A stretch of 64,000 nucleotides of DNA. It comes from an uncultured Candidatus Saccharibacteria bacterium. GTDB taxonomy: Bacteria > Patescibacteriota > Saccharimonadia > CAILAD01 > BJGX01. The notes under the pieces are model-generated. The model searched no databases. It was not told where the DNA came from and saw only the letters and a program-made list of their open reading frames with translations. A program made the position numbers and the translations under genes. The stretch covers positions 141,531 to 205,530 of the forward strand of contig CAZSVP010000003.1 of assembly GCA_964610335.1 (NCBI GenBank), read 5' to 3'. Each line of letters begins with the position of its first letter. The first letter of the stretch is position 1. Shown here in pieces: positions 7,963-61,102 of this stretch.

Positions 7963-8093
7963 GTGGTAGTACTTTGTCGTACATTCGTTTGATAATTGCT
8001 CTCACACAACTACTTACGAACATAATACGAATCTAGCCCCCTTGTTGTCAACTCTTTTACTCTCTCACGAAACAAAACTTAGTAGCATCATAG

Positions 8094-8120
8094 CCCGGCT
8101 GGGCAATAGCTACAATATGG
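8094..8120 (+). repeat. partial copy of CCCGG..GCAATAG.TAC repeat (see copies at 8334, 9176, 9434)
   Basis: CCCGGCTGGGCAATAGCTACAATATGG shares CCCGG-GCAATAG-TAC core with downstream copies. Confidence 0.4.
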
Positions 8121-8216
8121 TTTGTAAAAAATACAATGAAAAATCTGAGTTTGAAGTGATTTGTGCTACTGGTCAAAATATACGAAATATGTTAAAGTAG
8201 GCTGGCATTTTTTAGT

Positions 8217-8291
8217 GGTCCCATCGTCTAACGGTTAGGACACCAGATTCTCAATCTGGCAATCGGAGTTCGATTCTCCGTGGGATCACCA
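8217..8291 (+). tRNA. tRNA-Glu (anticodon CUC), CCA encoded
   Basis: Manual cloverleaf: acceptor GGTCCCA/TGGGATC, D-arm GTCT/GGAC, anticodon stem CCAGA/TCTGG with loop TTCTCAA (anticodon CTC), T-arm CGGAG-TTCGATT-CTCCG, discriminator A + CCA. Confidence 0.85.
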
Positions 8292-8333
8292 TGTCTTTAT
8301 ACAGAATTCTAGTCAACTTCAATAAGCTGCTGA

Positions 8334-8379
8334 GTTGGTTCGAATCCAGCCCCCGGAGCAATAGTACTTATGCTTAAAG
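8334..8379 (+). repeat. tRNA 3'-end-like fragment (T-arm GTTGG-TTCGAAT-CCAGC + acceptor-like tail) fused to repeat CCCGGAGCAATAGTACTTATGCTTAAAG; att-like copy a
   Basis: Canonical T-loop GGTTCGAATCC with pairing stem but no matching 5' acceptor/D/anticodon arms upstream; sequence repeated imperfectly at 9176 and 9434. Confidence 0.55.
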
Positions 8380-8400
8380 ACCTGAAAAGGTCCTTTTGAT

Positions 8401-9177
8401 ATGATAGTTATTATGAAGATTTTGTCACCAACTCTAAATTTTAATTCGCAGTCTGCAATAGATGAATTTAAGAAAGTTATTGGCGGGCTACCTAGTGATG
8501 TTGATGATTACATTGTTGGTGGTTCTGTTAGAAACGCTATTTTTAGAAAAATATTTGGTGAAGTACTTACTCAACGAGATTACGACCAAGTTGTTACAAA
8601 AAATTCAGATAAATATTTAGAGTATCTTAAATCTCTAGGGTTTTATCTCGGTAAACTAGACCGCCCTACTCAAAAGGTATATGCATACGACCTAATACCA
8701 AATCCACCTGCTGATAGTTATGTAGATTCATTGGTTTATGATATTCATACAATGGACAATACAACCATTGAAGAAAACCTAAGAACTAGTAGTGGTTTTA
8801 CAATCAACGGCTTTGCATTACCTATAAGAAAATTATTTGACGAAAACTGGTTTGACGAAATCATACAACTGCCAGGTGCACTAGATGATATGAAGAAAAA
8901 ACAGCTTAGGGTAAATAAAGATGGTTACAAAGAACAACCAGCGAATCTTTTTGCTGGAATTAGGTTTATGTCTAAAGGATTTTTACCACCTAGCAAAGAA
9001 GATGTTGAGTTATTACTAAACGAAATGCCAAACATCACTCCAGAAAGATTTGAAAAGGGCGTGAAGAAAGTCTGGGATTATGTTGGTGGCGAGCAAAAAG
9101 CTCGAGAGTATGTAAAACAGTTGAACATTGATATTGATATTTTTAATCGTGAAGAAATTCTGAGCAAACTAGGCTAG
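8401..9177 (+). CDS. truncated tRNA-nucleotidyltransferase/poly(A)-polymerase-family nucleotidyltransferase (head+neck domains only, 258 aa)
   Basis: YIVGGSVRN..DYD (Pol-beta NTase GG.VRD..D.D motif of CCA enzymes), FTINGFA (cf. RRDFTMNAIA), AGIRFMSKGF (cf. RAVRFVSELGF); ORF is ~35% GC versus ~47% flanks. Confidence 0.65.
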   Translation: MIVIMKILSPTLNFNSQSAIDEFKKVIGGLPSDVDDYIVGGSVRNAIFRKIFGEVLTQRDYDQVVTKNSDKYLEYLKSLGFYLGKLDRPTQKVYAYDLIPNPPADSYVDSLVYDIHTMDNTTIEENLRTSSGFTINGFALPIRKLFDENWFDEIIQLPGALDDMKKKQLRVNKDGYKEQPANLFAGIRFMSKGFLPPSKEDVELLLNEMPNITPERFEKGVKKVWDYVGGEQKAREYVKQLNIDIDIFNREEILSKLG

Positions 9178-30302: not shown

Positions 30303-30651
30303 AAAACCTGCTAAATAGTGTTTGTTTTTTGTTCGCTTATGCTTTATAATTATTGGTGACGTCGTAGTACCTTCCTGGCCATATTGGCCGTCGTCATTCG
30401 GGCCCCAATGAACTTTTTGATAATTTTACAAAATCCAAAGCGCTCCAAGCTCGCAATGGGTAATGCGTGTGTGCCAAAATGAAAAAGATCTCGGTGTGAA
30501 TCGAGATAGAAACAAACAGCTACTCTTATGTCTCTAAGTGGTTGATAGAGGGGGTGCCACTAAGCAGCCATGAGTTGTACAGCGATAGTAAAGCTCAAGC
30601 AGTAGGTTGAGCATAGAGCTTCGATGGTCAGTCTGCTGCTTGAGCTTGCTA

Positions 30652-30930
30652 AAACAAAAACAGACTAGTAGGCAAGCCCATAGTCTGTTTGTACACACCC
30701 TTTAACGCCGTCCCATGAGAATGGATTTTTCGGTCTCAAAATATATATATAGACCGCGGCGATTAAAGGGAGTAGCCTGCTACCACGAGAACCTAAAAGG
30801 AGGGTGAGTTTTAGGTCGTTTGGCTCGGGTAGCAGAGTACTCCCTTCAAACAAGTGTTTGATGATTTGGTTATTACCCTCACGGTTACTAACCCCTCGCA
30901 AAGTGCACACAATTACTGTGATTACTGAAT
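30652..30930 (-). ncRNA. candidate small RNA (promoter TTGACA-N17-TGaTAGTAT to intrinsic terminator), family unknown
   Basis: Minus-strand sigma70-like promoter around 30937-30965, rho-independent terminator (stem CAGACTA/TAGTCTG then TTTTTGTTTT) at 30652-30690; internal nested helices. Confidence 0.35.
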
Positions 30931-31012
30931 CGCAAGCTATACTATCACAGTACTCGTAGTTTGTCAATACTTTTAACACAAGAAGTTTTTACAACTCTTA
31001 TGGTTACCAGAT

Positions 31013-31876
31013 ATGAACGAGAAATCAAATATACAAGAACTGTGTTTAAATAGCAAGGGCTATCCGGAACTTTTAGCCACTATAGCCGCACCACCCAAAA
31101 AATTATATCTGAGAGGCAGTATCAAAGAGCTGCCATTAATTGCAGTAGTAGGCACGCGAAAGCCCACTGAGTATGGTCGCAAACTGTGCTATCGTATTTG
31201 CTATGATCTAGCTAGTAGCGGGATTGGGATAGTAAGTGGCCTAGCTTATGGCATCGATGCCATAGCACATCAAGCCGCTCTCGATGCTCGTGGTTATACA
31301 ATAGCTGTACTAGGTAACGCAATAGACAGTATTTATCCTGCTGGTAACCAACATATAGCAGGCAATATTCTAGAATCTGCTGGGGCAATTGTCAGTGAGT
31401 ACGAGCCAGGCGCCAATACTCAGCGGTTCAACTTCCCAGCTCGTAATCGCATAATTGCTGGACTAAGTCTGGGAGTATTAATACCAGAAGCAGATGCAAA
31501 AAGCGGTAGTCTTATCACCGCCAACTTTGCCGTTCAAGAAAACCGCATGGTTATGGCAGTACCAGGTAGTATATTTAATCTACGTAGTGCTGGACCCAAT
31601 AATTTACTCAAAAGTGGTGCTAAGCCTGTGACTGATGCTACAGATGTGCTGGCCGAGTTTGAATTACGCAACCCAGCCCTGACACGCAAAGCCCCCAAGC
31701 CTGCTAGCGCTACTGAAGCACGTATAATTGAGCTTGTAGAAGATGGTACAAATACTACCGAAGAGTTACTACGCCAGCTAGAACTCACTAGCCCTGAACT
31801 TGCCCAAACCCTTAGCCTGATGGAGATCACTGGCAAACTTCGCAGCCTTGGCGCTGGGCAGTGGGTAGCTCGATAA
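31013..31876 (+). CDS. dprA: DNA processing protein A (Smf)
   Basis: DprA Rossmann core (VVGTRKPTEYG, GLAYGIDAIAHQAAL, NRIIAGLS) plus C-terminal winged helix. Confidence 0.85.
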   Translation: MNEKSNIQELCLNSKGYPELLATIAAPPKKLYLRGSIKELPLIAVVGTRKPTEYGRKLCYRICYDLASSGIGIVSGLAYGIDAIAHQAALDARGYTIAVLGNAIDSIYPAGNQHIAGNILESAGAIVSEYEPGANTQRFNFPARNRIIAGLSLGVLIPEADAKSGSLITANFAVQENRMVMAVPGSIFNLRSAGPNNLLKSGAKPVTDATDVLAEFELRNPALTRKAPKPASATEARIIELVEDGTNTTEELLRQLELTSPELAQTLSLMEITGKLRSLGAGQWVAR

Positions 31877-31878
31877 TA

Positions 31879-31907
31879 TTGATTGTTCGTATAAAAAGTT
31901 GTACTAT
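31879..31907 (+). promoter_or_regulatory. sigma70-like promoter copy 1 (TTGATT-N17-TACTAT) for high-GC ORF-A
   Basis: Hexamers at 31879-31884 and 31902-31907; part of a ~35-50 bp motif repeated at 32360 and 32962. Confidence 0.5.
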
Positions 31908-31944
31908 CATCTGGTCCATACACGATCCCGACGAAAGGCCAAGA

Positions 31945-32280
31945 ATGTTCACCACAAAAGTTGAGGAACTCTGTCTGAGAGGCGAAGGCAAGGTGTTGTG
32001 CCACGGCACTGAAGTCCTGGACATGTTCGGACTGACCTACTTCGAAGTCGACCGACACCGGTTAGACCCAGAAGCGCGTGACCTCCTGCAAGGCTTGCTC
32101 GGTACCAGTTCCGTCCGTGGCCTCAAGATCACCCAGAACTTCGGGTCGAAACCCAACTTCAAGGTTCGGGTGTGCTTCGACAGGGTTCCGATCGATCATC
32201 TGGTGTTTGCGTTCAACGAGATCGCTCAGATGATCCAGCACCACATGCCAGAACTCGCTGGCGCGCCCGGCAGCGCCTGA
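31945..32280 (+). CDS. hypothetical protein, high-GC foreign gene (ORF-A, 111 aa)
   Basis: RBS GAAAGG 6 nt upstream of ATG 31945; ~60% GC versus ~45% in dprA; own promoter and terminator; track ORF starts at GTG 31861 overlapping dprA. Confidence 0.5.
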   Translation: MFTTKVEELCLRGEGKVLCHGTEVLDMFGLTYFEVDRHRLDPEARDLLQGLLGTSSVRGLKITQNFGSKPNFKVRVCFDRVPIDHLVFAFNEIAQMIQHHMPELAGAPGSA

Positions 32281-32326
32281 ACCACCAGGTTGCTCTGCCT
32301 CTATCCCGCCCCCATCCGACACGATT

Positions 32327-32356
32327 CCGCTCTCGGAAGAGGGCGGTTTCGCATTT
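32327..32356 (+). terminator. intrinsic terminator after ORF-A
   Basis: CCGCTCTC-GGAA-GAGGGCGG hairpin followed by TTTCGCATTTAT. Confidence 0.6.
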
Positions 32357-32359
32357 ATA

Positions 32360-32388
32360 TTGATTATTTACGGCTAAAGTTGTATACT
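32360..32388 (+). promoter_or_regulatory. sigma70-like promoter copy 2 (TTGATT-N17-TATACT) for NDT-like gene
   Basis: Hexamers at 32360-32365 and 32383-32388; near-duplicate of copy 1 architecture. Confidence 0.5.
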
Positions 32389-32433
32389 TGCCCAGTTCTT
32401 TGAACATAATTCGTCCTCAACCAAGGAGATCCC

Positions 32434-32907
32434 GTGGACACACTTGATACCATGGTGGCTTATCGCCACACCGGAGTGCCAGAGGCCGAGCTGGCTGAGC
32501 TCATGGAGGCAGTCAAAGTGGCTCTTGACGCCACTGGCTGGAACTGGCACTGCACCTACTGGGAAGAGGGAAACTTCCGCTCCCAGGGAGCCGGCCGGCG
32601 CGAGATCATGGACCATGCTCGTGAACAGCTCGATCAGATCAATTTCCTGATCTGCATCGTCGACAGCCCGATCGACAGCCCCGGCATGGTCTGGGAGATG
32701 GGCTACTGCCGCGCCAAGAAAATACCAATCCTGGCCTTGGTGCGTGCTGGTTGCAGCAACACCTACGGTGCCGACATGGCCGACAAGGTGGCCGAGTACG
32801 GTGAACCCTGGCAGATCGCCACTATCCTGGAGGATGTGGTGCACCATGGCGGTGCGCTCAACTACATCGCACAAGCCGGGGTAGTCCTCTACGAGTTCGA
32901 GTCATAG
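32434..32907 (+). CDS. nucleoside 2-deoxyribosyltransferase-like (SLOG/NDT-DNPH1 family) protein, 157 aa, high GC
   Basis: Active-site region DSPGMVWEMGYCRAKKIPILAL matches NDT/DNPH1 D.G..fE.G.a.a.gKP pattern with candidate catalytic Glu; RBS AAGGAG; GTG start; ~60% GC. Confidence 0.6.
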   Translation: MDTLDTMVAYRHTGVPEAELAELMEAVKVALDATGWNWHCTYWEEGNFRSQGAGRREIMDHAREQLDQINFLICIVDSPIDSPGMVWEMGYCRAKKIPILALVRAGCSNTYGADMADKVAEYGEPWQIATILEDVVHHGGALNYIAQAGVVLYEFES

Positions 32908-32960
32908 CCCGTCGCCAGCCGCGAAAATTCGTCCCAGGTGGTGACGGGTTTTCGCTTTTT
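32908..32960 (+). terminator. intrinsic terminator after NDT-like gene
   Basis: CCCGTCGCC...GGTGACGGG stem followed by TTTTCGCTTTTT. Confidence 0.5.
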
Positions 32961-32974
32961 ATTGATATTAATAT

Positions 32975-33004
32975 TTGACAACATTGTACTCACTCATATA
33001 TAGT
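32975..33004 (+). promoter_or_regulatory. topA promoter (TTGACA-N18-TATAGT), within repeat copy 3
   Basis: -35 TTGACA 32975-32980, -10 TATAGT 32999-33004, 60 nt upstream of topA ATG. Confidence 0.45.
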
Positions 33005-33064
33005 ACCGAACTTGACGCCGCTCACAATTTACTGCAACATAAGCGTTAACTACATTGATTTTAT

Positions 33065-35386
33065 ATGTCTAAAAACTTAGTAATAGTCGAATCACCAGCC
33101 AAAGCCAAGACAATTGAGAAATATCTTGGCACTGACTATCAGGTCCTCAGCTCGATGGGCCACATTCGCGATCTTCCCAAAAGTGGCATAGGCATAGATA
33201 TTGCCCATAATTTCAAACCTGAATATGAGATAAGCCCCGACAAAACTAAGACTGTCAGTGAGCTAAAGCGGGCCGCCAAAGGCAAAACCATTTGGCTAGC
33301 TACTGATGAAGACCGCGAAGGAGAGGCTATAAGCTGGCATCTGTGTTCAGCACTTGGCATCGATCCCAAAACTACCAAGCGTATCGTATTTCACGAGATC
33401 ACCAAGCCTGCTATTACTGAGGCCGTTAAATCACCACGCACAGTTGACCTAAATATGGTTGATGCCCAGCAAGCCCGACGTGTGCTTGACCGGCTAGTAG
33501 GCTACGAACTAAGTCCGGTCTTGTGGAAGAAAATTAAAACAGGCCTTAGCGCAGGTCGTGTGCAGTCAGTTGCTGTACGACTCATAGTAGAACGTGAGCG
33601 CGAAATAGAGCAATTTGCCGAAAAATCAGATTATAAGGTTACAGCTGAATTTTCTTCTAATAGTGGCGAGGTACTCAAGGCAGAGTTAAATACTAGATTC
33701 CCTGATAGCAAAACTGCTGAATCTTGGTTGAAAAAGGTAATTGGCAAGAACTTCGTACTCCAATCTGTCGAGAAAAAACCAGGTAAACGCAGCCCAGCTG
33801 CGCCATTTACTACCTCAACGCTTCAACAAGCCGCCTCGACTCGCTTAGGCTTCAGTGTGCGCCAAACTATGGTATTGGCCCAAAAACTCTATGAGGCAGG
33901 CCATATTACTTATATGCGTACTGATTCGGTCAGCCTTAGCGATCAAGCCCTCAAACAAGCTCGACAGGTTATTGAATCTGAATTTGGCAAAGATTTCTAC
34001 CTGGCGCGTCACTACAAGAACAAGTCCGCCAATGCCCAAGAGGCCCATGAGGCGATTCGACCAACAAACTTCGCAGTTGCTAAATGCGGTAATGAACCAG
34101 CCCAAATCAAACTTTACCAACTTATCCGCGCTCGTGCCCTTGGATCTCAAATGGCAGATGCCAAACTAGAGAAGACTGAAATGATCATAGTAACAGATGG
34201 TACTACAGAGAAGTTTGTTGCCAAAGGAGAGGTAATTGTGTTTGCCGGATTTCTACAAGCATATCCTAATTCTACAGGTAGAGATGACAGTATTCTACCT
34301 GATCTCAAATCTGGTGATCAGCTTAAGACTAATACAATCGTAGCCACCCAAACATATGCTCGACCATTAGCTCGCTATACTGAGGCCAGCCTGGTGCGCG
34401 AGCTCGAAAAGCGCGGCATTGGCCGACCAAGCACCTATGCACCAACCATATCCACCATCCAGACTCGTGAATACGTAACTAAATCTGAAGATATGGAAAA
34501 GCAGCGCGAGGTCACAATCCTAACCTTGCAATCTGGCAAGATCACAGTTGAGAATACCACTGAAAATTACGATACAGATCGAAACCGCCTTCGCCCAACA
34601 GATACTGGTACTGTGGTGACAGATTTTTTGGTTAAGTATTTCGCAGAAATCTTAGATTATGACTTTACCGCCAAGGTAGAGGCCGAATTTGATGATATTG
34701 CCAAAGGTGAAGAAAAGTGGCAAACCATGATAGCTGATTTTTACAAACCATTTCATAAGCTAATAGAGAGTAGTGAAGAAATCAGCCGACACGAAGCTAG
34801 CCAGGGAAGAATACTTGGAAAAGACCCAAAAAGTGGCAAGCCGGTGATAGCCAGGCTAGGCCGATATGGTGCCATGCTCCAGATAGGACAAGCTGAAGAT
34901 GAAGAAAAGCCTAAGTTCGCCCCTATGCCATCTGGCCGTAAGATAGGCGATGTTACACTTGAAGAAGCCCTGACCATGTTTAAACTACCAAGGGTAGTCG
35001 GGAAAACCGCCGAAAGTGAAGAGATTACTGCCAATATAGGACGATTTGGGCCTTACGTGAAGGTAGGTGACAGCTATGTGTCTATCAAGGACGAGGATCC
35101 ATTTAGTATCGATGAAGCAACTGCACGAAAGCTGATTATTGCCAAACGCAAAGCTGATGCCGAAAAGATTATTCAGAACTTCGAGGCAGAGAAGATACAG
35201 GTGTTGAATGGACGCTTTGGGCCCTATGTAACAGATGGCACCACCAATTCTAAAGTCCCCAAAGATCAAGACCCTAAGAAACTCAAACTCAAAGACTGCC
35301 AAGCTATGCTTGAGGAAGCACGTAACAAGCCGACTAAAGGTCGTCGATTTGCCCCAAAGGGTACCAAAAAAGCCACCAAAAAATAG
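33065..35386 (+). CDS. topA: DNA topoisomerase I
   Basis: TOPRIM N-terminus (LVIVESPAKAKTIEKYLG), active-site Tyr region, C-terminal Lys-rich tail; 773 aa. Confidence 0.9.
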   Translation: MSKNLVIVESPAKAKTIEKYLGTDYQVLSSMGHIRDLPKSGIGIDIAHNFKPEYEISPDKTKTVSELKRAAKGKTIWLATDEDREGEAISWHLCSALGIDPKTTKRIVFHEITKPAITEAVKSPRTVDLNMVDAQQARRVLDRLVGYELSPVLWKKIKTGLSAGRVQSVAVRLIVEREREIEQFAEKSDYKVTAEFSSNSGEVLKAELNTRFPDSKTAESWLKKVIGKNFVLQSVEKKPGKRSPAAPFTTSTLQQAASTRLGFSVRQTMVLAQKLYEAGHITYMRTDSVSLSDQALKQARQVIESEFGKDFYLARHYKNKSANAQEAHEAIRPTNFAVAKCGNEPAQIKLYQLIRARALGSQMADAKLEKTEMIIVTDGTTEKFVAKGEVIVFAGFLQAYPNSTGRDDSILPDLKSGDQLKTNTIVATQTYARPLARYTEASLVRELEKRGIGRPSTYAPTISTIQTREYVTKSEDMEKQREVTILTLQSGKITVENTTENYDTDRNRLRPTDTGTVVTDFLVKYFAEILDYDFTAKVEAEFDDIAKGEEKWQTMIADFYKPFHKLIESSEEISRHEASQGRILGKDPKSGKPVIARLGRYGAMLQIGQAEDEEKPKFAPMPSGRKIGDVTLEEALTMFKLPRVVGKTAESEEITANIGRFGPYVKVGDSYVSIKDEDPFSIDEATARKLIIAKRKADAEKIIQNFEAEKIQVLNGRFGPYVTDGTTNSKVPKDQDPKKLKLKDCQAMLEEARNKPTKGRRFAPKGTKKATKK

Positions 35387-36571: not shown

Positions 36572-39310
36572 ATGCAAGAATTTTTTTCAATTATCGCCAA
36601 TATTATCAACCTGCTTGGTACTGTTTTGTTCCGCTACTGGGGCTGGACTGTCGTAGCAGCTATTCTGGCGTATTTAATCTGGCAGAATCGGCGTAAAATC
36701 GAATATGTAAGTACCAGTGAGCACATACTTTTACAGATAATTGTGCCTAAGAACAACGAGCAAAAAGAGCTCAACGCCGAACAAATGTTTGCCGCTCTGC
36801 ATGGGATACTGCGCCCGAGCGCTGAAATACAAAAAGAAGGCAGTATCCAAGAACACATCAGTTTTGAAATAGCAGCACAAGGCAACAAGATACATTTCTA
36901 TGTGTGGACCCCAAAGCACCTCAAGTCATTTGTAGAAAGCCAGGTTTACGCACAGTATCCAACAGTTCAGATCTATGAAATGGACCAAGACTATGCAGTA
37001 ACCGCGCTGAACAACCGAGTACCATATAGCACAGATCTAGTTCTCACCAAAGACGAAATATTTCCTATCAAAACATTCCCTAGTTTTGAAGTAGATCCAC
37101 TAGCAGGCATGACCACGGCATTGGCCTCACTTAGTGAGCAAGAAGAAATGTGGATACAGGTACTATTGAGACCGACTGACGATAGTTGGCACAAAAAGTC
37201 ACTGAATTACGTTGAAGAGATCCGTACTGGCAAGAAGAATGTATCCCTTTCTCAACTGTTACTCGGCGACTGGAAAAAAAAGTTGGTACAGGCGCCATTT
37301 GCATTCTTGGGTGCCTTGTTTAACGCTGCCTTCAAACCTGTTGGTGGTGGCGACAAGAAAGATGAAAAGAAAGAAAAGAAGGAGCTTAGTCCAGGTACTA
37401 CTACCATGCTAACTGCTGTTGAAACTAAGGCCGAAAAGCTTGGTTATGAAACACGAATTCGAGCAATGTATCTTGGTACCAGCGACGACAACGCCAAAAC
37501 TCGTATACAAGCGTTGGTTGGTGGTTTTAAGCAGTTTAATACAATCAACCTCAATGGTTTCACCAACGATGGCATCCACGCTGGTGAAGAAGGGTTACGG
37601 GACTATCGAGCACGATTGTTCGACAGTAAAGGGTACGTGCTCAATATCGAAGAAGTAGCTAGTCTTTACCATTTGCCCCATGTCTCGGTTGAGACTCCTG
37701 GAGTTGCATATACCAATACCAAAGTGGGGGAGCCTCCAGCCAATCTGCCAACACAGCTCAACACACCACCCGAAGCCCTTAGCTTAATCGGCAGTACCAA
37801 TTTCCGACAAGCCAATATCAAGTTTGGTATCAAGCGCACTGATCGCAAACGTCATCTATACATAGTAGGTAAAAGTGGCGTAGGTAAGTCATTCTTGCTT
37901 GAGCTACTTGCAATTTCTGACCTATACCACAATCAAGGCTTTGCAGTAGTTGACCCACATGGTGACTTTGCCCAAAACATCATGAAGTATTTGCCTAAAG
38001 AGCGTATTGACGATGTTGTTTACTTCAACCCAGCTGACACTGAATTTCCTATTGGATTTAATCCAATGGAAGTCCAAGATGAATTCAGACGAAACAATAT
38101 AGCCTCTGAGATCATAGGTGTACTTAAGAAAATGTTTGGTGATAGCTGGGGACCACGCCTTGAACATATTCTTCGTTTTACACTACTGGCACTACTTGAG
38201 AGCCCTGATAGTACCATGCTAGGCATCACACGTATGCTTACCGATAAGAAATATCGCAATGAAGTAGTCAAAAACGTTACCGACCCTGTAGTAAAAGCCT
38301 TCTGGGTCAATGAGTTTGCCGCCTGGAACGACAAGTTTGCCTCTGAAGCTGTGGCTCCAGTATTGAACAAAGTCGGTGCATTTACGGCCAACCCACTAAT
38401 TCGTAATGTAATTGGTCAGACCAAGAGTACGTTTAATATACGTGAGATGATGGACCAAGGTAAGATCTTAATAGTTGATCTCAGCCGAGGCCGCATTGGT
38501 GAAGACAACGCAGGTATCTTAGGCGCATTACTAATTACCAAGATTCAACTCGATGCCATGAGTCGTGCTGACATAGGTGATATAGAAGCCCGTCGACCAT
38601 TCTATCTATATGTTGATGAATTTCAGAATTTTGCGACCGAAAGTTTTGCAGTTATTCTTTCTGAAGCTCGTAAATACGGCCTATTCCTCACTATTGCTAA
38701 CCAGTACATTGCCCAAATGCCGGAAGAAGTACGTGATGCCGTATTTGGTAACGTTGGTTCCATGATATCATTCCGCGTTGGCGCCGATGATGCCGACTAC
38801 CTTACCAAGTATTTTGAACCGGTATTCGAAGCTGCAGACCTTACCAATCTAGGTATACAAAACATCTATGTCACTATGAGTATAGATGGTGAAACCTCCC
38901 AGCCGTTCTCAGCCAAGACACTACACCGACCAGAGTCTCAGCAAGATCTGACAGCAACAATCATTGAGCACTCACGCCATCGCTACACCAAATCAAAAGC
39001 CGAGGTGGAAGCCGAGATAGTAGCCTGGAGCGGATTTAGTTCAGGAAGTGACGACTCTAAACAGTCAACTCACGATACTGGTGGCCACGACAAACCAACT
39101 GATCAGCCCAAAGAACCACTTATACCTGTGGTAGATCATAAACCGAACTTAATTGGCGTAGAGCCCAAAAAATATTCTGAGGAATACAAAAAACGCGCCC
39201 CTCGTGCACAAGGGCAAGGCTCGAACCGACAACAAAGCAGTAACAAAAACGAATCCGGCAAGAGCTCAAATAATCGTCGCAGACGGCCAAGAAACCGCAA
39301 TAGTAAGTAA
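36572..39310 (+). CDS. VirD4/TraG/TraD-like type IV coupling-protein-family ATPase (FtsK/HerA superfamily), 912 aa
   Basis: N-terminal TM helices, Walker A IVGKSGVGKS, Walker B-like YLYVDEFQNF, TIANQY motif; basic low-complexity C-terminal tail. Confidence 0.6.
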   Translation: MQEFFSIIANIINLLGTVLFRYWGWTVVAAILAYLIWQNRRKIEYVSTSEHILLQIIVPKNNEQKELNAEQMFAALHGILRPSAEIQKEGSIQEHISFEIAAQGNKIHFYVWTPKHLKSFVESQVYAQYPTVQIYEMDQDYAVTALNNRVPYSTDLVLTKDEIFPIKTFPSFEVDPLAGMTTALASLSEQEEMWIQVLLRPTDDSWHKKSLNYVEEIRTGKKNVSLSQLLLGDWKKKLVQAPFAFLGALFNAAFKPVGGGDKKDEKKEKKELSPGTTTMLTAVETKAEKLGYETRIRAMYLGTSDDNAKTRIQALVGGFKQFNTINLNGFTNDGIHAGEEGLRDYRARLFDSKGYVLNIEEVASLYHLPHVSVETPGVAYTNTKVGEPPANLPTQLNTPPEALSLIGSTNFRQANIKFGIKRTDRKRHLYIVGKSGVGKSFLLELLAISDLYHNQGFAVVDPHGDFAQNIMKYLPKERIDDVVYFNPADTEFPIGFNPMEVQDEFRRNNIASEIIGVLKKMFGDSWGPRLEHILRFTLLALLESPDSTMLGITRMLTDKKYRNEVVKNVTDPVVKAFWVNEFAAWNDKFASEAVAPVLNKVGAFTANPLIRNVIGQTKSTFNIREMMDQGKILIVDLSRGRIGEDNAGILGALLITKIQLDAMSRADIGDIEARRPFYLYVDEFQNFATESFAVILSEARKYGLFLTIANQYIAQMPEEVRDAVFGNVGSMISFRVGADDADYLTKYFEPVFEAADLTNLGIQNIYVTMSIDGETSQPFSAKTLHRPESQQDLTATIIEHSRHRYTKSKAEVEAEIVAWSGFSSGSDDSKQSTHDTGGHDKPTDQPKEPLIPVVDHKPNLIGVEPKKYSEEYKKRAPRAQGQGSNRQQSSNKNESGKSSNNRRRRPRNRNSK

Positions 39311-57100: not shown

Positions 57101-57198
57101 TCTGATCTGGTTCTTGATTGAATAATACTTCTACTTATTGTATAATTGCCAACCAACATTGCGTTCGTATTTCTACTGGCCGACCATAAGGAGTCGCA

Positions 57199-57915
57199 AT
57201 GAGCAACACCACAACTGACAGCTTTGGAGAGTTGGTAGTGCGACGAGCCGATCAGCTGCGCCAGCGCGGCGATGCCGGCGGTGCTTGCCGGGATTTCAAC
57301 AAGGCCTACAACTTGCTGCGTAGCGAAGGCAAGGCCTGCGACCCCGTCATGCGTGACTGCTTGCATATGTGGGGAGTTGCGCTCTGCAGCAAAGGCAACC
57401 CGGCCGAGGCATTGAGCAAGTTCCGCCAAGCAATTCAGTTGTCCATCGACATCGGTGACCAGCCAAGTCGCATGGCCATGGGCAACATCATGCGTGATGA
57501 AGCCAAGGCTCAGATGCTGCTCGGCGAGCTCGATCGTGCCGAAGAGTGTCTCATCAGCTCACAACAGATTCTCAAGCCAGAGACCGAATGGGATCAGACT
57601 GCGCTACAAGGATTGGCCAACACCATCGGATTCCAAGGCCGTCTCGAAGTGTACCGTCACAATCTCGGTCTAGCTCTGCAATATCTACGCGAAGCTGATC
57701 GCCTGCTAGGCGCGATCGGAGCCGATCAACCCCGACTGTACAACCTGCTGGTGTTGTCTCGCACAGCTCACATGGCAGGTATGGCCGAAGCTGCTGGACA
57801 TGCTCGTGCAGCTTGGCCACTGGCCAAAAGGTATGGCGGCCGTAGCCATCGCATCCGAGCAATGCTGCTGATGCTCCCGATCGCCTGGCGGCTCGAAGCT
57901 CGCATGAGCTCGTAG
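57199..57915 (+). CDS. TPR-like hypothetical protein, high GC
   Basis: Helical repeat composition; ~60% GC; first gene of high-GC island. Confidence 0.45.
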   Translation: MSNTTTDSFGELVVRRADQLRQRGDAGGACRDFNKAYNLLRSEGKACDPVMRDCLHMWGVALCSKGNPAEALSKFRQAIQLSIDIGDQPSRMAMGNIMRDEAKAQMLLGELDRAEECLISSQQILKPETEWDQTALQGLANTIGFQGRLEVYRHNLGLALQYLREADRLLGAIGADQPRLYNLLVLSRTAHMAGMAEAAGHARAAWPLAKRYGGRSHRIRAMLLMLPIAWRLEARMSS

Positions 57916-58065
57916 CACCCAAGAGTGCTTTTACCCGTCCCCAACGAACGTCCCTGACATTTGTTGGGGACGTTCGTGTTTTTGGAGATGATTTTAATTC
58001 AATAATTGCTTGCCGGAGTGCGGAAGTATGATCACTCACACCTCCGCACCCCGAAGTTCACCCCC

Positions 58066-59496
58066 TCAGAGGATCTCGCCAGGGCTGTAGCGAGCTGCCT
58101 CTGGGTACTTGGCCATCACCGGCTCGATCGAGCGCACGAAGTTGCCCACCTGCGCTACCGCTACACCGGTCATCTCGATCGGATTGGCCAATGCTTCGCG
58201 CAGATCGGCCAGCTCGACGCACTGCATGTTGGGATCAGCCGCTATCCGTTCCAGCAGATCGTTGGGCAGACCCCCAACTTCTCGCTGTGCCATCTTGAGT
58301 GCCAAGGCATGCTCCTTGATGACCTCGTGGGCCTTCTCACGACCCATGCCGGCACGAACCGCGGCCATCAACAGCTTGGTAGTGCCCAGGTACGGCAGTT
58401 GCTCGCGCAACTCGGTCTGAATCATGGCCGGAAAGAATCCGAACTCATCGAGCACCGTGAGCCAGGTCTGGTAGAGCCCATCGAGGGCGAAGAACGAGTC
58501 CGGAAGCACCACGCGGCGAATCACGCTGCAGCTCACGTCGCCCTCGAACCAGGTGTCGCCAGCCAGCTCGTTGGCCATGGTGACATGACCGCGCAGCGTG
58601 CACTGCAGCGCACGGATGCGCTCACAGCTACGAGAGTTTTCCTTGTGCGGCATGGCGCTGCTACCGGTCTGGCCAGGTTTGAAACCCTCGCTAGCCAAGC
58701 CCAGACCCGACATCAACCGAATCATCTGAGCAAAGTTGCCGGCTGGCGCTGCCAGTAGCAATAGCAGCTCGACCACCTCGGAGTCGTAGCTACGTGGATA
58801 GACCTGCCCCACCGAGTTCATCGACTCGGCAAAGCCGAGATGCTCGGCAATCCGCCGTTCCAGCTCCACCACGTCATCTGGGTTGCTCAGCAGATCCAAC
58901 TGATCCTGCTGAGTACCAACCGGACCCTTGATACCACGCAACTGGTAGTGCTCGATCACATACTCGAGCTTGTCCAGGAAGTGCAGCAGCTCCTCGCCGA
59001 TGGTGGCGATTCGCTTGCCCACCGTGGTGGGCTGAGCTGGCACGAAGTGACTGCGTCCGGCGATCACCACACCAACGTAGTTGGTGGCTGACTCACCCAA
59101 GCGAGCCAGCGCTGCCACCACACGGATGCGGATCAGCTTGAGACTCCGCAGCACCTGCATCTGCTCGACGTTGTCGGTCAGGTCACGGCTGGTCATACCC
59201 TTGTGCAGGTGCTCATGGCCAGCCAGCGCGCAGAACTCCTCGATCCGCGCCTTCACGTCGTGGCGGGTGCGGCGCTCGCGAGTGGCGATGGACTCGAGAT
59301 CCACCTGATCGATGACGGCTTCGTAGGCCTCGATCACGCCATCGGGCACATCCACACCCAAATTCTTCTGGGCGCGCAGTACGGCCAGCCAGAGCTCGCG
59401 CTCCATGATCACCTTCTGCCGTTCACCCCAAACCTCACGCACCTCCTCGGAGGCGTAGCGCATGGCCAGGACATTGCTGATTTCAGTGATGGCCAC
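58066..59496 (-). CDS. purB: adenylosuccinate lyase
   Basis: Fumarate-lyase signature GSSAMPHKEN; 476 aa; high GC. Confidence 0.85.
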   Translation of the reverse strand: MAITEISNVLAMRYASEEVREVWGERQKVIMERELWLAVLRAQKNLGVDVPDGVIEAYEAVIDQVDLESIATRERRTRHDVKARIEEFCALAGHEHLHKGMTSRDLTDNVEQMQVLRSLKLIRIRVVAALARLGESATNYVGVVIAGRSHFVPAQPTTVGKRIATIGEELLHFLDKLEYVIEHYQLRGIKGPVGTQQDQLDLLSNPDDVVELERRIAEHLGFAESMNSVGQVYPRSYDSEVVELLLLLAAPAGNFAQMIRLMSGLGLASEGFKPGQTGSSAMPHKENSRSCERIRALQCTLRGHVTMANELAGDTWFEGDVSCSVIRRVVLPDSFFALDGLYQTWLTVLDEFGFFPAMIQTELREQLPYLGTTKLLMAAVRAGMGREKAHEVIKEHALALKMAQREVGGLPNDLLERIAADPNMQCVELADLREALANPIEMTGVAVAQVGNFVRSIEPVMAKYPEAARYSPGEIL

Positions 59497-59654
59497 TGTG
59501 GCCTCCTCTTTGTCAATGCCTACAATAAGTAGACGGTACGAACAACAAAAGCGGCATCATGCCGCCTTGTACATTAGTATATGAGTATTGCTAGTCCAGA
59601 TCAAATTTGGTAAACTCACCGAGACCTCGACAACTGAATAGAAAGGCAGTCGTC

Positions 59655-61025
59655 ATGACGCCAACCAAACCAATCCTGCCCGTCAATGCTCGCATCGTGG
59701 TAGTCGGCAATGGTGGCCGCGAGGCCGCATTGGCTCGCCGACTTCGTCAAGACAGCCCGGAACGCGTGGTACATGTGGTGCCAGGCCGTGAGGGTTGCAT
59801 CCTTGGCTCCGAACCGCTTGATGGACGAAGCTTGCTCGACGTTTGTCTGAACCTCGAAGCTGATCTGTACGTGATCGGACCTGAAGCCCCATTGGTCGAC
59901 GGCCTGGCCGACGACTTGCGCAAGCAAGACAAGCTGGTGATCGGCCCTGGTGCCGACGGTGCCCAGCTCGAGGGCAGCAAGATCTGGATGAAGCAGCTGC
60001 TCGACGATGCAGGTGTGCCGACTGCCGCCTGGCAGGAGGGCGGCTTCGCCGAGATCGAAGACCTGCTGGAGTTCATCAACTACCTCGGCGGCAGCGCAGT
60101 AGTCAAGACCGACTACCTGGCTGCTGGCAAAGGTGTGGGGGTGTTTCACAACGACGCCGACGCCGCTGGTCGCGATGCCATACAGAAGACCGGCCCGCTC
60201 GAGTCAGGGCGCCGCGTGGTGGTCGAAGAAGTGATGGAAGGCGAAGAACTCTCAATGTTCTTCCTATGTGATGGTCAGCGTGCCGTCTTCTGCGGCTCAG
60301 CCCAGGACTACAAGTACCTAATCAAGGATGGTGTGAGCTACATGACCGGCGGTGTCGGCAGCTATTCACCCGTCGAGTGGCATACGCCCAAGCTGATCGA
60401 CATGGTAACCACCAACATCGCGCAACCGACGCTCAAGGCCTTACAGGCACGCGGCATCGACTACCGCGGCTTCCTGTTCTGCGGGCTGATGTTGACGCAG
60501 GACGGACCCAAGGTGCTGGAGTACAACATCCGCTTCGGAGATCCGGAGGCGCAGGCGGTGCTGCCACGCATCATCGGCGACTTCGGCCAGATGCTCTACG
60601 AAGCCGCCCATGGCCAGCTCACCAGCCCGGTGCAGCTCGACGATCGTGCTGCAGTGTGTGTGGTGGCCTGTGGTCGCGACTACCCGGCCGCCAGCCAGCT
60701 CGACGCTCTGATCAGCTGGCAAGCCGGTGTCGATTACGACGGCGAGCACGCCTACCGCCTACATGCCGGCACCCGCGAGGCGCCTCATGCCATGATCGCC
60801 ACCGATGGTGGTCGGGTGCTCAACTTCGTCGGTCTTGGCAGTCGTGTGTCGACAGCCCGGCGTCGTGCCTACAAGCTGGCACGCTCCGTCGAGTGGGATG
60901 GCATGGTGCTGCCCAACTACATCGCAGCCGAAGCGGCTCTCATCTCTGGTGATGAAGCACAGGCACAAAAGCAAGAGATGGCACAACGACGAGCAGCGCT
61001 AGCAACCAAAATCGATGCCGACTGA
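59655..61025 (+). CDS. purD: phosphoribosylamine--glycine ligase
   Basis: ARIVVVGNGGREAALARRL (PurD N-terminus), ATP-grasp core, C-terminal GGRVLNFVGLG; RBS GAAAGG before ATG 59655 (track ORF starts 59607). Confidence 0.8.
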   Translation: MTPTKPILPVNARIVVVGNGGREAALARRLRQDSPERVVHVVPGREGCILGSEPLDGRSLLDVCLNLEADLYVIGPEAPLVDGLADDLRKQDKLVIGPGADGAQLEGSKIWMKQLLDDAGVPTAAWQEGGFAEIEDLLEFINYLGGSAVVKTDYLAAGKGVGVFHNDADAAGRDAIQKTGPLESGRRVVVEEVMEGEELSMFFLCDGQRAVFCGSAQDYKYLIKDGVSYMTGGVGSYSPVEWHTPKLIDMVTTNIAQPTLKALQARGIDYRGFLFCGLMLTQDGPKVLEYNIRFGDPEAQAVLPRIIGDFGQMLYEAAHGQLTSPVQLDDRAAVCVVACGRDYPAASQLDALISWQAGVDYDGEHAYRLHAGTREAPHAMIATDGGRVLNFVGLGSRVSTARRRAYKLARSVEWDGMVLPNYIAAEAALISGDEAQAQKQEMAQRRAALATKIDAD

Positions 61026-61102
61026 GCAAGTCGAGCAGTAGGCCGAATGAGCCTTCAACGAGAGTCTTTGACTTCTATGTTGGAGGCTCTTGTTGTAATT
61101 AT

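Follow-up and report, generated by a model that had tools for sequence, protein, structure and literature searches.

What lies between the core genes dprA and topA in an uncultured Candidatus Saccharibacteria bacterium, and how did it come to be there? In the 64,000-nucleotide stretch of contig CAZSVP010000003.1 analyzed here (the window), these two genes are separated by two small genes of high guanine-plus-cytosine (GC) content. One, here called ORF-A (open reading frame A), encodes a 111-amino-acid (aa) protein; the other encodes a 157-aa protein resembling the nucleoside 2'-deoxyribosyltransferases (NDTs) and the hydrolase DNPH1. We consider it probable that the interval is a strain-variable, horizontally acquired islet of promoter-gene-terminator modules, one of which carries a DNPH1/NDT-type enzyme. 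Deviant composition and variable presence in close relatives, the two marks of horizontally acquired islets, were both found at this locus.

The composition of the islet looks foreign. GC content is 0.55 to 0.60 over 31.9 to 32.95 kb, compared with 0.44 to 0.48 in dprA and topA. At third codon positions (GC3), ORF-A and the 157-aa gene are outliers (z = 5.0 and 5.5, respectively) against the 50 other ORFs of the window (0.431; standard deviation, 0.059). An earlier note, made by reading the window, had described a GC rise across an insert with two small genes of these sizes, and the recomputed GC and GC3 values agree with it. In both genes, the combination of low GC at second codon positions and high GC3 favors the plus-strand frames over overlapping antisense ORFs, one of which was picked by a public gene call (locus L002).

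The dprA-topA junction was surveyed through exact-protein look-ups, and the intergenic sequences were read across the relatives retrieved. At least five arrangements were found in two lineages (P and T denote predicted promoters and terminators; lengths in aa are given in parentheses; window features are listed in Table 1). Lineage A, whose flanks are 93 to 99% identical among members, contains type A1 (the window, L002, and L004), with the order P1-ORF-A(111)-T1-P2-NDT(157)-T2, and type A2 (L001 and L013 to L020), in which a promoter and a leader with two hairpins precede NDT(147)-T2. A2 is the common form in this lineage (28 blocks of the collection). Relative to the window, DprA is 97% identical at the amino acid level in L001 and 82% identical in lineage B (L005). 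Within lineage B, type B1 (L009, L010, and L021, with L011 and L012 partial) reads P1-ORF-A(108)-T1-P2-leader-NDT(164)-81-aa gene-T2; type B2 (L005) retains P1-ORF-A-T only; and type B3 (L006 to L008, with L003 partial) carries an 89-aa coiled-coil gene of native GC, followed by P2-leader-NDT(164)-81-aa gene-T2. The islet genes are of high GC in these relatives as well, with NDT GC3 values of 0.68 to 0.83 across all types that carry the gene, and the repeats discussed below are clearer there than in the window. Native-GC copies of these genes without repeats, which would have told against the earlier note, were not what the relatives showed.

Because NDT stands alone in L001 and L013 to L020, ORF-A stands alone in L005, and the 89-aa gene occupies the place of ORF-A in L006 to L008, the two genes of the window are separate modules rather than partners. 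The earlier suggestion that ORF-A is the partner of the NDT-like gene is therefore not borne out, each gene occurring without the other in relatives. Nor is the islet a recent insert private to this genome, since it occupies the same place, always at high GC, in both lineages, between which DprA is 82% identical. In total, more than 30 independent assemblies contain the islet. They stem from many samples and from four sources (Logan, ENA, JGI, and NCBI), and one contig of 11.5 kb is 100% identical.

Two further small genes were observed in these arrangements. A high-GC, Cys-rich 81-aa protein (four Cys, including a CWRC motif) is encoded 36 nucleotides (nt) after the lineage B NDT gene. With its own ribosome-binding site (RBS) and this spacing, the 81-aa gene is probably cotranscribed with NDT. 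The protein matches no Pfam family and is absent from the lineage of the window. The 89-aa coiled-coil protein encoded in the place of ORF-A (L006, 7605 to 7874; L007 and L008; L003, 1 to 117) gave a weak, subthreshold CHASE3 match. Kinship between ORF-A and this replacement gene was considered and rejected, as the two are unrelated.

Comparison of near-identical loci indicates how modules may be lost. In L009, T1 and T2 form direct repeats of 53 nt that are 96% identical, lie exactly 1,000 nt apart, and enclose P2, the NDT gene, and the 81-aa gene. L005 is 99.5% identical to L009 on the left and 99.2% identical on the right, with one 53-nt copy common to both alignments, and lacks exactly those 1,000 bp. 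The copy in L005 carries two T1-specific bases and then continues into the downstream flank of T2. As read from these sequences, the difference between L005 and L009 is a crossover inside the 53-nt repeat. Deletion in L005 would be the more parsimonious direction, because the NDT module is common to A1, A2, B1, and B3.

Modules also appear to have been exchanged. A 393-nt segment of L006 bearing the 89-aa gene stands in place of the 553-nt segment of L009 bearing ORF-A, with flanks that are 96 to 99% identical; the breakpoints of this swap are the dprA stop codon and P2. At its start, type A2 shares TAATATTGATT with P1 of the window, and an NDT leader follows. This start fits a crossover between P1 and P2, although the spacers are too diverged for proof. 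Rearrangement of the locus by homologous recombination at duplicated terminator/promoter DNA is well supported by these sequence comparisons, in keeping with the part of the earlier note that assigned repeated terminator/promoter DNA a role in building or rearranging the array.

Divergence of the islet genes is discordant with that of the flanks in both directions. Between the window and L001, dprA and topA show synonymous divergence (dS) of 0.25 to 0.30 and nonsynonymous divergence (dN) of 0.011 to 0.013 (93 to 94% nucleotide identity), compared with a dS of 1.19 and a dN of 0.28 for NDT (69% identity). Between L001 and L009, representing lineages A and B, dS is saturated in dprA and topA, with a dN of 0.13 to 0.16 (71 to 72% identity), compared with a dS of 0.79 and a dN of 0.13 for NDT (80% identity). 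For ORF-A of the window and L009, dS is 0.78 and dN is 0.33 (69% identity). These values point to a history of the islet genes that differs from that of the flanks and to allele replacement or exchange between lineages. All dN/dS (omega) values obtained for islet genes are 0.16 to 0.42, so that these genes are maintained by purifying selection.

Each of the two genes had been said to possess its own RBS, promoter, and terminator, and this layout, with predicted promoters and terminators, was borne out by reading the sequence, by a promoter scan, and by folding. Both putative terminators, each a hairpin with a T-rich tail behind it, were detected by direct folding (T1, -20.9 kcal/mol, z = -2.1; T2, -25.8 kcal/mol, z = -4.4); a rule-based terminator scan missed them, as the hairpins are branched and have long loops. 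The terminator element consists of an outer stem of 10 to 13 bp around a small inner hairpin, and the copies in relatives together with T2 of the window fold with z scores of -4.3 to -6.0. Across T2 of the window, T2 of L001, and T1 and T2 of L009, the outer stem is kept by compensatory base changes (C-G to T-A; T-A to T-G to C-G). T1 of the window is a degenerate copy of this shared element and aligns with both T1 and T2 of the relatives. T2 is present in L001; L005 has a different tail at that position. The element is not a genome-wide repeat. As for the promoter-like sites, the positional homologues of P1 are TTGATT-17-TATTAT in L001 and TTGCAT-17-TAGTAT in L005 and L009, and P2 has positional homologues in L009 and L006. 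Given its place, P1 would drive whichever module stands first after dprA.

The repeat of about 50 bp that the earlier note placed at three sites is weak within the window and did not hold as stated. Short blocks are common to the regulatory elements: P1 and P2 share ATATTGATT-N11-AAGTTGTA, a combination found at no other site of the window (a pattern defined post hoc, on P1 and P2 themselves), and T1 and T2 share the tail GGGCGG(G)TTT(T)CGC.TTT. Without gaps, copies 1 and 2 of the claimed repeat match at chance level, with 26 of 46 bases identical versus 26.1 ± 1.0 for the best match of random 46-mers from the window. It looks like chance within the window because T1 there is a degenerate copy. 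The third copy (32943 to 32970), which had been equated with the topA promoter, is the 3' tail of the NDT module terminator and is missing from L005, where the topA promoter is kept. In a three-way alignment, the topA promoter hexamers and the leader that follows them are invariant in L001 and L005, with a variable spacer. Derivation of the repeat from the topA promoter is thus not borne out, this promoter being downstream and separate.

Two leader sequences were observed alongside these elements. The 5' leader of topA (window, 32993 to 33050; L001, 10525 to 10585; L005, 7425 to 7480) is nucleotide invariant (CTCATATATAGTACCGAACTTGACGC and CTGCAACATAAGCGTTAAC) between lineages that have reached saturation at synonymous sites. 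It has no match in Rfam, and its predicted structure is neither strong nor common to both lineages (z = +0.55 and -1.86); the leader may have a protein-binding or regulatory role. The 5' leader of NDT is GC rich in relatives and contains two hairpins, ATTCGA-loop-TCGAAT and GCTGCGG-loop-CCGCAGC (L001, 9925 to 10000; L009 and L006, 7925 to 8000), with conserved stems and variable loops. In the NDT leader of the window, the second hairpin is lost and the first is degraded. Rfam searches returned nothing for the window region or for the NDT leader and terminators of relatives, and IMG/VR was likewise negative when scanned with the terminator, the leader hairpin, and the alignments of the two proteins.

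We read the 157-aa protein, from its sequence and its modeled fold, as a divergent member of the NDT/DNPH1 superfamily. The only Pfam family that it matches is PF05014 (Nuc_deoxyrib_tr), at 26.2 bits (E = 9.6e-6) relative to a cutoff of 28.8. Its ortholog P0002 (65% identical) scores 32.5 bits, above the cutoff, and P0003 scores 22.9 bits; homology to P0002 thus places the window protein in the PF05014 superfamily. Across the NDT-like proteins, the only Pfam matches are PF05014 and PF15891, and no TIR or SLOG model is hit. An AlphaFold2 model built on three sequences (predicted local distance difference test [pLDDT], 73.7; predicted template modeling score, 0.74) has a five-stranded alpha/beta, flavodoxin-like fold that superposes on solved DNPH1 and NDT structures. 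In Foldseek searches against the PDB, the best solved match was human DNPH1 (template modeling [TM] scores, 0.72/0.78; root mean square deviation, 2.5; 20% identity), with further matches to the NDTs of Chroococcidiopsis, Desulfotalea, B. psychrosaccharolyticus, and E. faecalis. Matches in BFVD include viral NDTs (TM up to 0.74/0.84), and the best one is a giant virus protein annotated as "TIR domain-containing protein" (E = 9e-8; TM, 0.77/0.72); a Gordonia phage Ghobes protein (E = 1.2e-3) and a CAP12/Pycsar-TIR protein are also among the fold matches. The NDT/DNPH1 identity given in the earlier note therefore stands on the fold, the Glu motif described below, and the above-cutoff ortholog, with the reservation that the window protein itself is subthreshold.

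The candidate catalytic residue is E88, in the motif S82-P-G-M-V-W-E88-M-G-Y (G-x-x-x-E-x-G after strand 4). HMMER aligns DSPGMVWEMGY with the Glu motif DAGVASEIGV of the E. faecalis protein 7m5h, the sole sequence match in the PDB. Each of the three known clusters of the subfamily has the same residues at Y10, D60, S82, and E88. By predicted secondary structure, Y10 ends the strand at residues 5 to 11 and D60 lies in the helix at residues 55 to 66, the elements expected to hold the catalytic Tyr and Asp. S82 is preceded by D81 and lies six residues before E88, and the loop after strand 1 reads Y-R-H-T-G. In DNPH1, the phosphate-binding Ser presumably sits six residues before the catalytic Glu, i.e., at the S82 position; S82 thus hints at monophosphate substrates. 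The subfamily is rare, with three clusters at 90% identity among 5.8 billion sequences, and all members with examined context sit at the dprA-topA junction. A second, word-based search with the NDT alignment retrieved no further relatives, and tblastn gave no match at an E value of ≤1 in phage (50,697) or plasmid records. NCBIfam, PADLOC, and PHROGs offered nothing useful for either protein, and PADLOC-DB contained no family at an E value of ≤1 for either one. Origin of the 157-aa protein as a SLOG-fold duplicate of DprA was rejected, as it has no sequence similarity to DprA. Our literature search found no paper linking Saccharibacteria with deoxyribosyltransferases.

ORF-A matches no family in Pfam, NCBIfam, PADLOC, or PHROGs. 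An exhaustive phmmer search of 1.84 billion representatives gave a single true relative, P0005, which is the ortholog in L005, and one spurious match to a repeat protein. Comparison of its profile with PDB sequences returned noise (E > 0.3), tblastn against phage records gave no match at an E value of ≤1, and a single-sequence AlphaFold2 model was unusable (pLDDT, 44.5). Nevertheless, ORF-A is, judging from sequence conservation, a real gene, because a 108-aa ortholog of 60% identity holds the same junction in the second lineage (L005, L009, L010, and L021), with a dN/dS of 0.42.

Among characterized enzymes, DNPH1/Rcl, which groups with the bacterial cytidine monophosphate (CMP) and hydroxymethyl-CMP N-glycosidases MilB and BlsM and acts as a 2'-deoxynucleoside 5'-phosphate N-hydrolase, shares with the 157-aa protein an alpha/beta fold, a length of about 150 aa, and the invariant Glu in G-x-x-x-E-x-G. 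The invariant Tyr and Asp of the window protein are candidates for the remaining members of the catalytic triad Y24/D80/E104 (PMC10603095). Unlike DNPH1, the window protein lacks the GSIRGG-type phosphate loop; identity in structural alignments is 19 to 23%, and the PDB sequence search with the 157-aa protein gave no match to DNPH1. The NDTs of PF05014 (7m5h and those of Chroococcidiopsis, Desulfotalea, and B. psychrosaccharolyticus) share the fold (TM, 0.55 to 0.65) but only 10 to 16% identity, and the three clusters of the window subfamily, in contrast, all come from this Saccharibacteria clade. The position that we take to be Asp92 of the L. leichmannii NDT is Ser in the window protein, with an adjoining Asp. 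DmtZ is an NDT-family deoxyadenosine monophosphate hydrolase/phosphodeoxyribosyltransferase of Z-genome Gordonia phages (PMC12884076). It too is a stand-alone NDT-fold protein, of approximately 145 aa, from a high-GC actinobacterial-phage context, and the fold matches include the Gordonia phage Ghobes protein; however, tblastn found no similarity in the phage records, and the window locus has no PurZ, DutZ, or DpoZ context.

At the level of the locus, strain-variable islets between core genes that are lost through direct repeats offer the closest likeness, given the core flanks, the deviant composition, presence or absence in near-identical strains, and the 1,000-bp indel with its 53-nt repeats. 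The present islet differs in its very small size (0.6 to 1.5 kb), in the lack of an integrase, transposase, or tRNA, and in repeats that are copies of the terminator carried by the modules themselves, not att sites. Integron cassettes also form arrays of small units that hold one gene each and end in an imperfect palindrome. An integron was rejected because no IntI lies nearby, each unit has its own promoter, and the palindromes are terminator-like (GC-rich stem and T-tract) without a GTTRRRY core. A toxin-antitoxin or other obligate two-gene system was also rejected, as the genes occur apart, each with a separate promoter and terminator. The locus is a miniature genomic islet of a familiar type and not a new kind of system, unusual only in having no mobility gene and in using its own terminator as the recombination repeat.

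Saccharibacteria are ultrasmall epibionts with reduced genomes that are generally held to be unable to make nucleotides and to take up DNA naturally. Under the islet reading, independent promoter-gene-terminator modules would be parted by copies of one structured terminator and by similar promoters, and recombination between these repeats would delete or reinsert modules. DNA exchange between related strains would replace alleles, possibly by natural transformation through the conserved dprA and topA flanks. In the enzyme, Glu88 would be the nucleophile at C1' of a deoxynucleotide or deoxynucleoside and form a covalent Glu88-sugar intermediate, from which the base would be released or exchanged; an epibiont that scavenges nucleotides would thereby salvage them or keep their pool clean. 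Judging from the model, base cleavage or transfer on deoxynucleoside 5'-monophosphates or deoxynucleosides in the service of salvage or sanitation has about an even chance of being the true function. Composition, the reality of the genes, fold and family, the polymorphism of the modules, the 1-kb indel with its repeats, and the discordant divergence are direct observations of this analysis; the activity of the predicted promoters and terminators, the recombination route, the donor, the substrate, and the physiological role we infer from sequence.

Several points weigh against this account. The window protein falls 2.6 bits below the PF05014 cutoff. Among the relatives found, none has an empty dprA-topA junction, and the insertion event itself is thus unseen; a scan of genome contigs with DprA returned one locus only, and scans of metagenome contigs with a 26-mer from the topA leader and with the DprA alignment returned nothing. 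High GC3 narrows synonymous change and may bias the dS comparisons. Sequence, phage, and plasmid searches found no donor homologue or outgroup for either protein, so that horizontal origin is argued entirely from composition and discordant divergence. Finally, small, fast-evolving, strain-variable genes are also typical of conflict loci. The junction might accordingly be a small locus for antiphage defense or toxin/immunity, with an NDT/TIR-like effector that degrades nucleotides or NAD and with ORF-A, the 81-aa gene, and the 89-aa gene serving interchangeably for regulation or immunity. Conflict systems are known to include NDT-like folds; here, the gene content varies among strains, allele divergence is far above that of the flanks, the proteins are orphans, and the fold matches include the TIR-annotated viral protein and CAP12/Pycsar-TIR. 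We nevertheless regard this explanation as unlikely, since PADLOC returned nothing for either protein, the enzyme is a single domain without a sensor or any TIR or SLOG model, the genes occur singly rather than as an obligate pair, each has its own predicted promoter and terminator, unlike a toxin-antitoxin operon, and omega is below 0.5, with no sign of positive selection over the whole gene. The defense or signaling module that the earlier note had offered as an alternative likewise found no support: neither PADLOC nor PHROGs returned anything useful, no sensor or partner domains were found, and the neighboring DprA is unrelated in sequence.

Decay could also produce strain-variable oddities of this kind, the genes being functionless remnants of old transfers kept only by drift, or the high-GC segment could be an assembly chimera. 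T1 of the window is degenerate, its NDT leader has lost a hairpin that relatives keep, and modules are readily lost (L001 type and L005). Yet no assembly examined has a broken reading frame, dN/dS values are 0.16 to 0.42, and the catalytic motif is invariant; a chimera is ruled out by recovery of the junction from independent assembly sources. Decay or artifact is therefore quite unlikely. A recent, private two-gene insert that arose when the topA promoter was duplicated or served as a recombination site, ORF-A being the partner of NDT, strikes us as very improbable. The short blocks TTGAT... and ...TTGTAC do recur near the topA promoter (32962 to 32988), and the terminator tails are alike, but the topA promoter is distinct and persists in L005 where the supposed third copy is absent, the islet spans two lineages and more than 30 assemblies, its two genes occur apart, and copies 1 and 2 match at chance level when ungapped. 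A bolder extension of the islet reading, which we hold to be rather unlikely, would make the junction a site of recombination-driven shuffling, used by a naturally transformable epibiont to keep and trade genes captured from high-GC actinobacteria that are its hosts, or from phages of these hosts; the DNPH1-like enzyme would then have a new, lifestyle-tied specificity, and additional lifestyle factors would be encoded by ORF-A, the 81-aa gene, and the 89-aa gene. Were this so, the enzyme could cleave host-derived or phage-modified deoxynucleotides for salvage, sanitation, or protection. Capture of host genes for nucleotide metabolism would also fit the second high-GC island of the window, described below.

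Table 1. Positions of features at the dprA-topA junction, in the second high-GC island of the window, and of the 81-aa gene in relatives
Feature	Position	Strand	Remarks
dprA, left core flank	31013-31876	+	PF02481, E = 1.9e-72; GC 0.464; GC3 0.35
P1, promoter-like site	31879-31907	+	TTGATT-17-TACTAT; sequence reading; directly after dprA stop
RBS of ORF-A	31933-31938	+	GAAAGG; sequence reading
ORF-A, 111 aa	31945-32280	+	GC 0.568; GC1/2/3 (codon positions) 0.61/0.38/0.72
T1, putative terminator of ORF-A module	32306-32361	+	Hairpin CCGCCC...GGGCGG, then tail TTTCGCATTTATATT
P2, promoter-like site of NDT module	32360-32388	+	TTGATT-17-TATACT; promoter scan
RBS of 157-aa gene	32423-32428	+	AAGGAG; start codon GTG
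157-aa NDT/DNPH1-like gene	32434-32907	+	GC 0.597; GC1/2/3 0.63/0.41/0.75
T2, putative terminator of NDT module	32906-32963	+	Hairpin CCCGTCGCCA...TGGTGACGGG, then tail TTTTCGCTTTTTATT
topA promoter, native	32975-33004	+	TTGACA-18-TATAGT; best promoter match in region, 11/12
topA, right core flank	33065-35386	+	PF01131, E = 5e-111, plus Toprim; GC 0.455; GC3 0.41
TPR protein	57199-57915	+	Second high-GC island
PurB, adenylosuccinate lyase	58066-59496	-	568 bits to PDB 4nle vs ≤226 for other adenylosuccinate lyase families
PurD, glycinamide ribonucleotide (GAR) synthetase	59607-61025 (or later start)	+	Second high-GC island
81-aa gene	L006 8532-8777; L009 8532-8777; L003 773-1018		

The islet lies among core housekeeping genes, and no integrase, transposase, or tRNA gene was found near it. 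Upstream neighbors include a sensor kinase, a response regulator, a class II aminoacyl-tRNA synthetase (PF00152, tRNA-synt_2), scpA/B, a pseudouridine synthase, a D-Ala-D-Ala carboxypeptidase, a Der/EngA-like GTPase (two MMR_HSR1 domains and a KH-like domain), and pth. Downstream are a sigma-r4/HARE-HTH protein, a HerA/TrwB-like ATPase, ftsQ, murG, and ftsW. The ATPase (HerA/TrwB/TraG-like; 912 aa; 36572 to 39310), two genes downstream of topA and assigned to DUF8128 in relatives, is kept in all of them and belongs to the core neighborhood, not to the islet. Approximately 710 nt upstream of dprA (30303 to 31012) are conserved in relatives and hold no convincing ORF; gene callers disagree on the corresponding stretch in relatives, placing there either a minus-strand ORF of 104 aa or a plus-strand ORF of 54 aa, and the stretch has no Rfam match at the gathering threshold. 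A low-GC patch (0.36) at 8001 to 9000 holds the only tRNA of the window (8217 to 8288).

A second, larger high-GC island was observed at 57150 to 61050 (GC, 0.55 to 0.68; GC3, 0.64 to 0.77; z = 3.5 to 5.8), encoding a TPR protein, PurB, and PurD, each with AT-rich, promoter-like DNA upstream. PurB and the TPR protein each fall in 90%-identity clusters with 11 to 12 members from other assemblies. PDB 4nle, the best match of PurB, is presumably a Mycobacterium enzyme, which hints at an actinobacterial donor. The second island suggests that uptake of genes for nucleotide metabolism from high-GC donors recurs in this genome.

The islet beside dprA offers a concrete case of how reduced genomes gain, swap, and lose accessory functions without mobile-element machinery. 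Among its genes is a nearly orphan branch of the DNPH1/NDT enzymes, and an indel with repeats at its ends was caught between strains that are 99% identical. Should the substrate specificity of the enzyme prove new, the NDT/DNPH1 toolbox for nucleoside-analogue synthesis would be enlarged, and the result would bear on how epibionts process the nucleotides that they scavenge.

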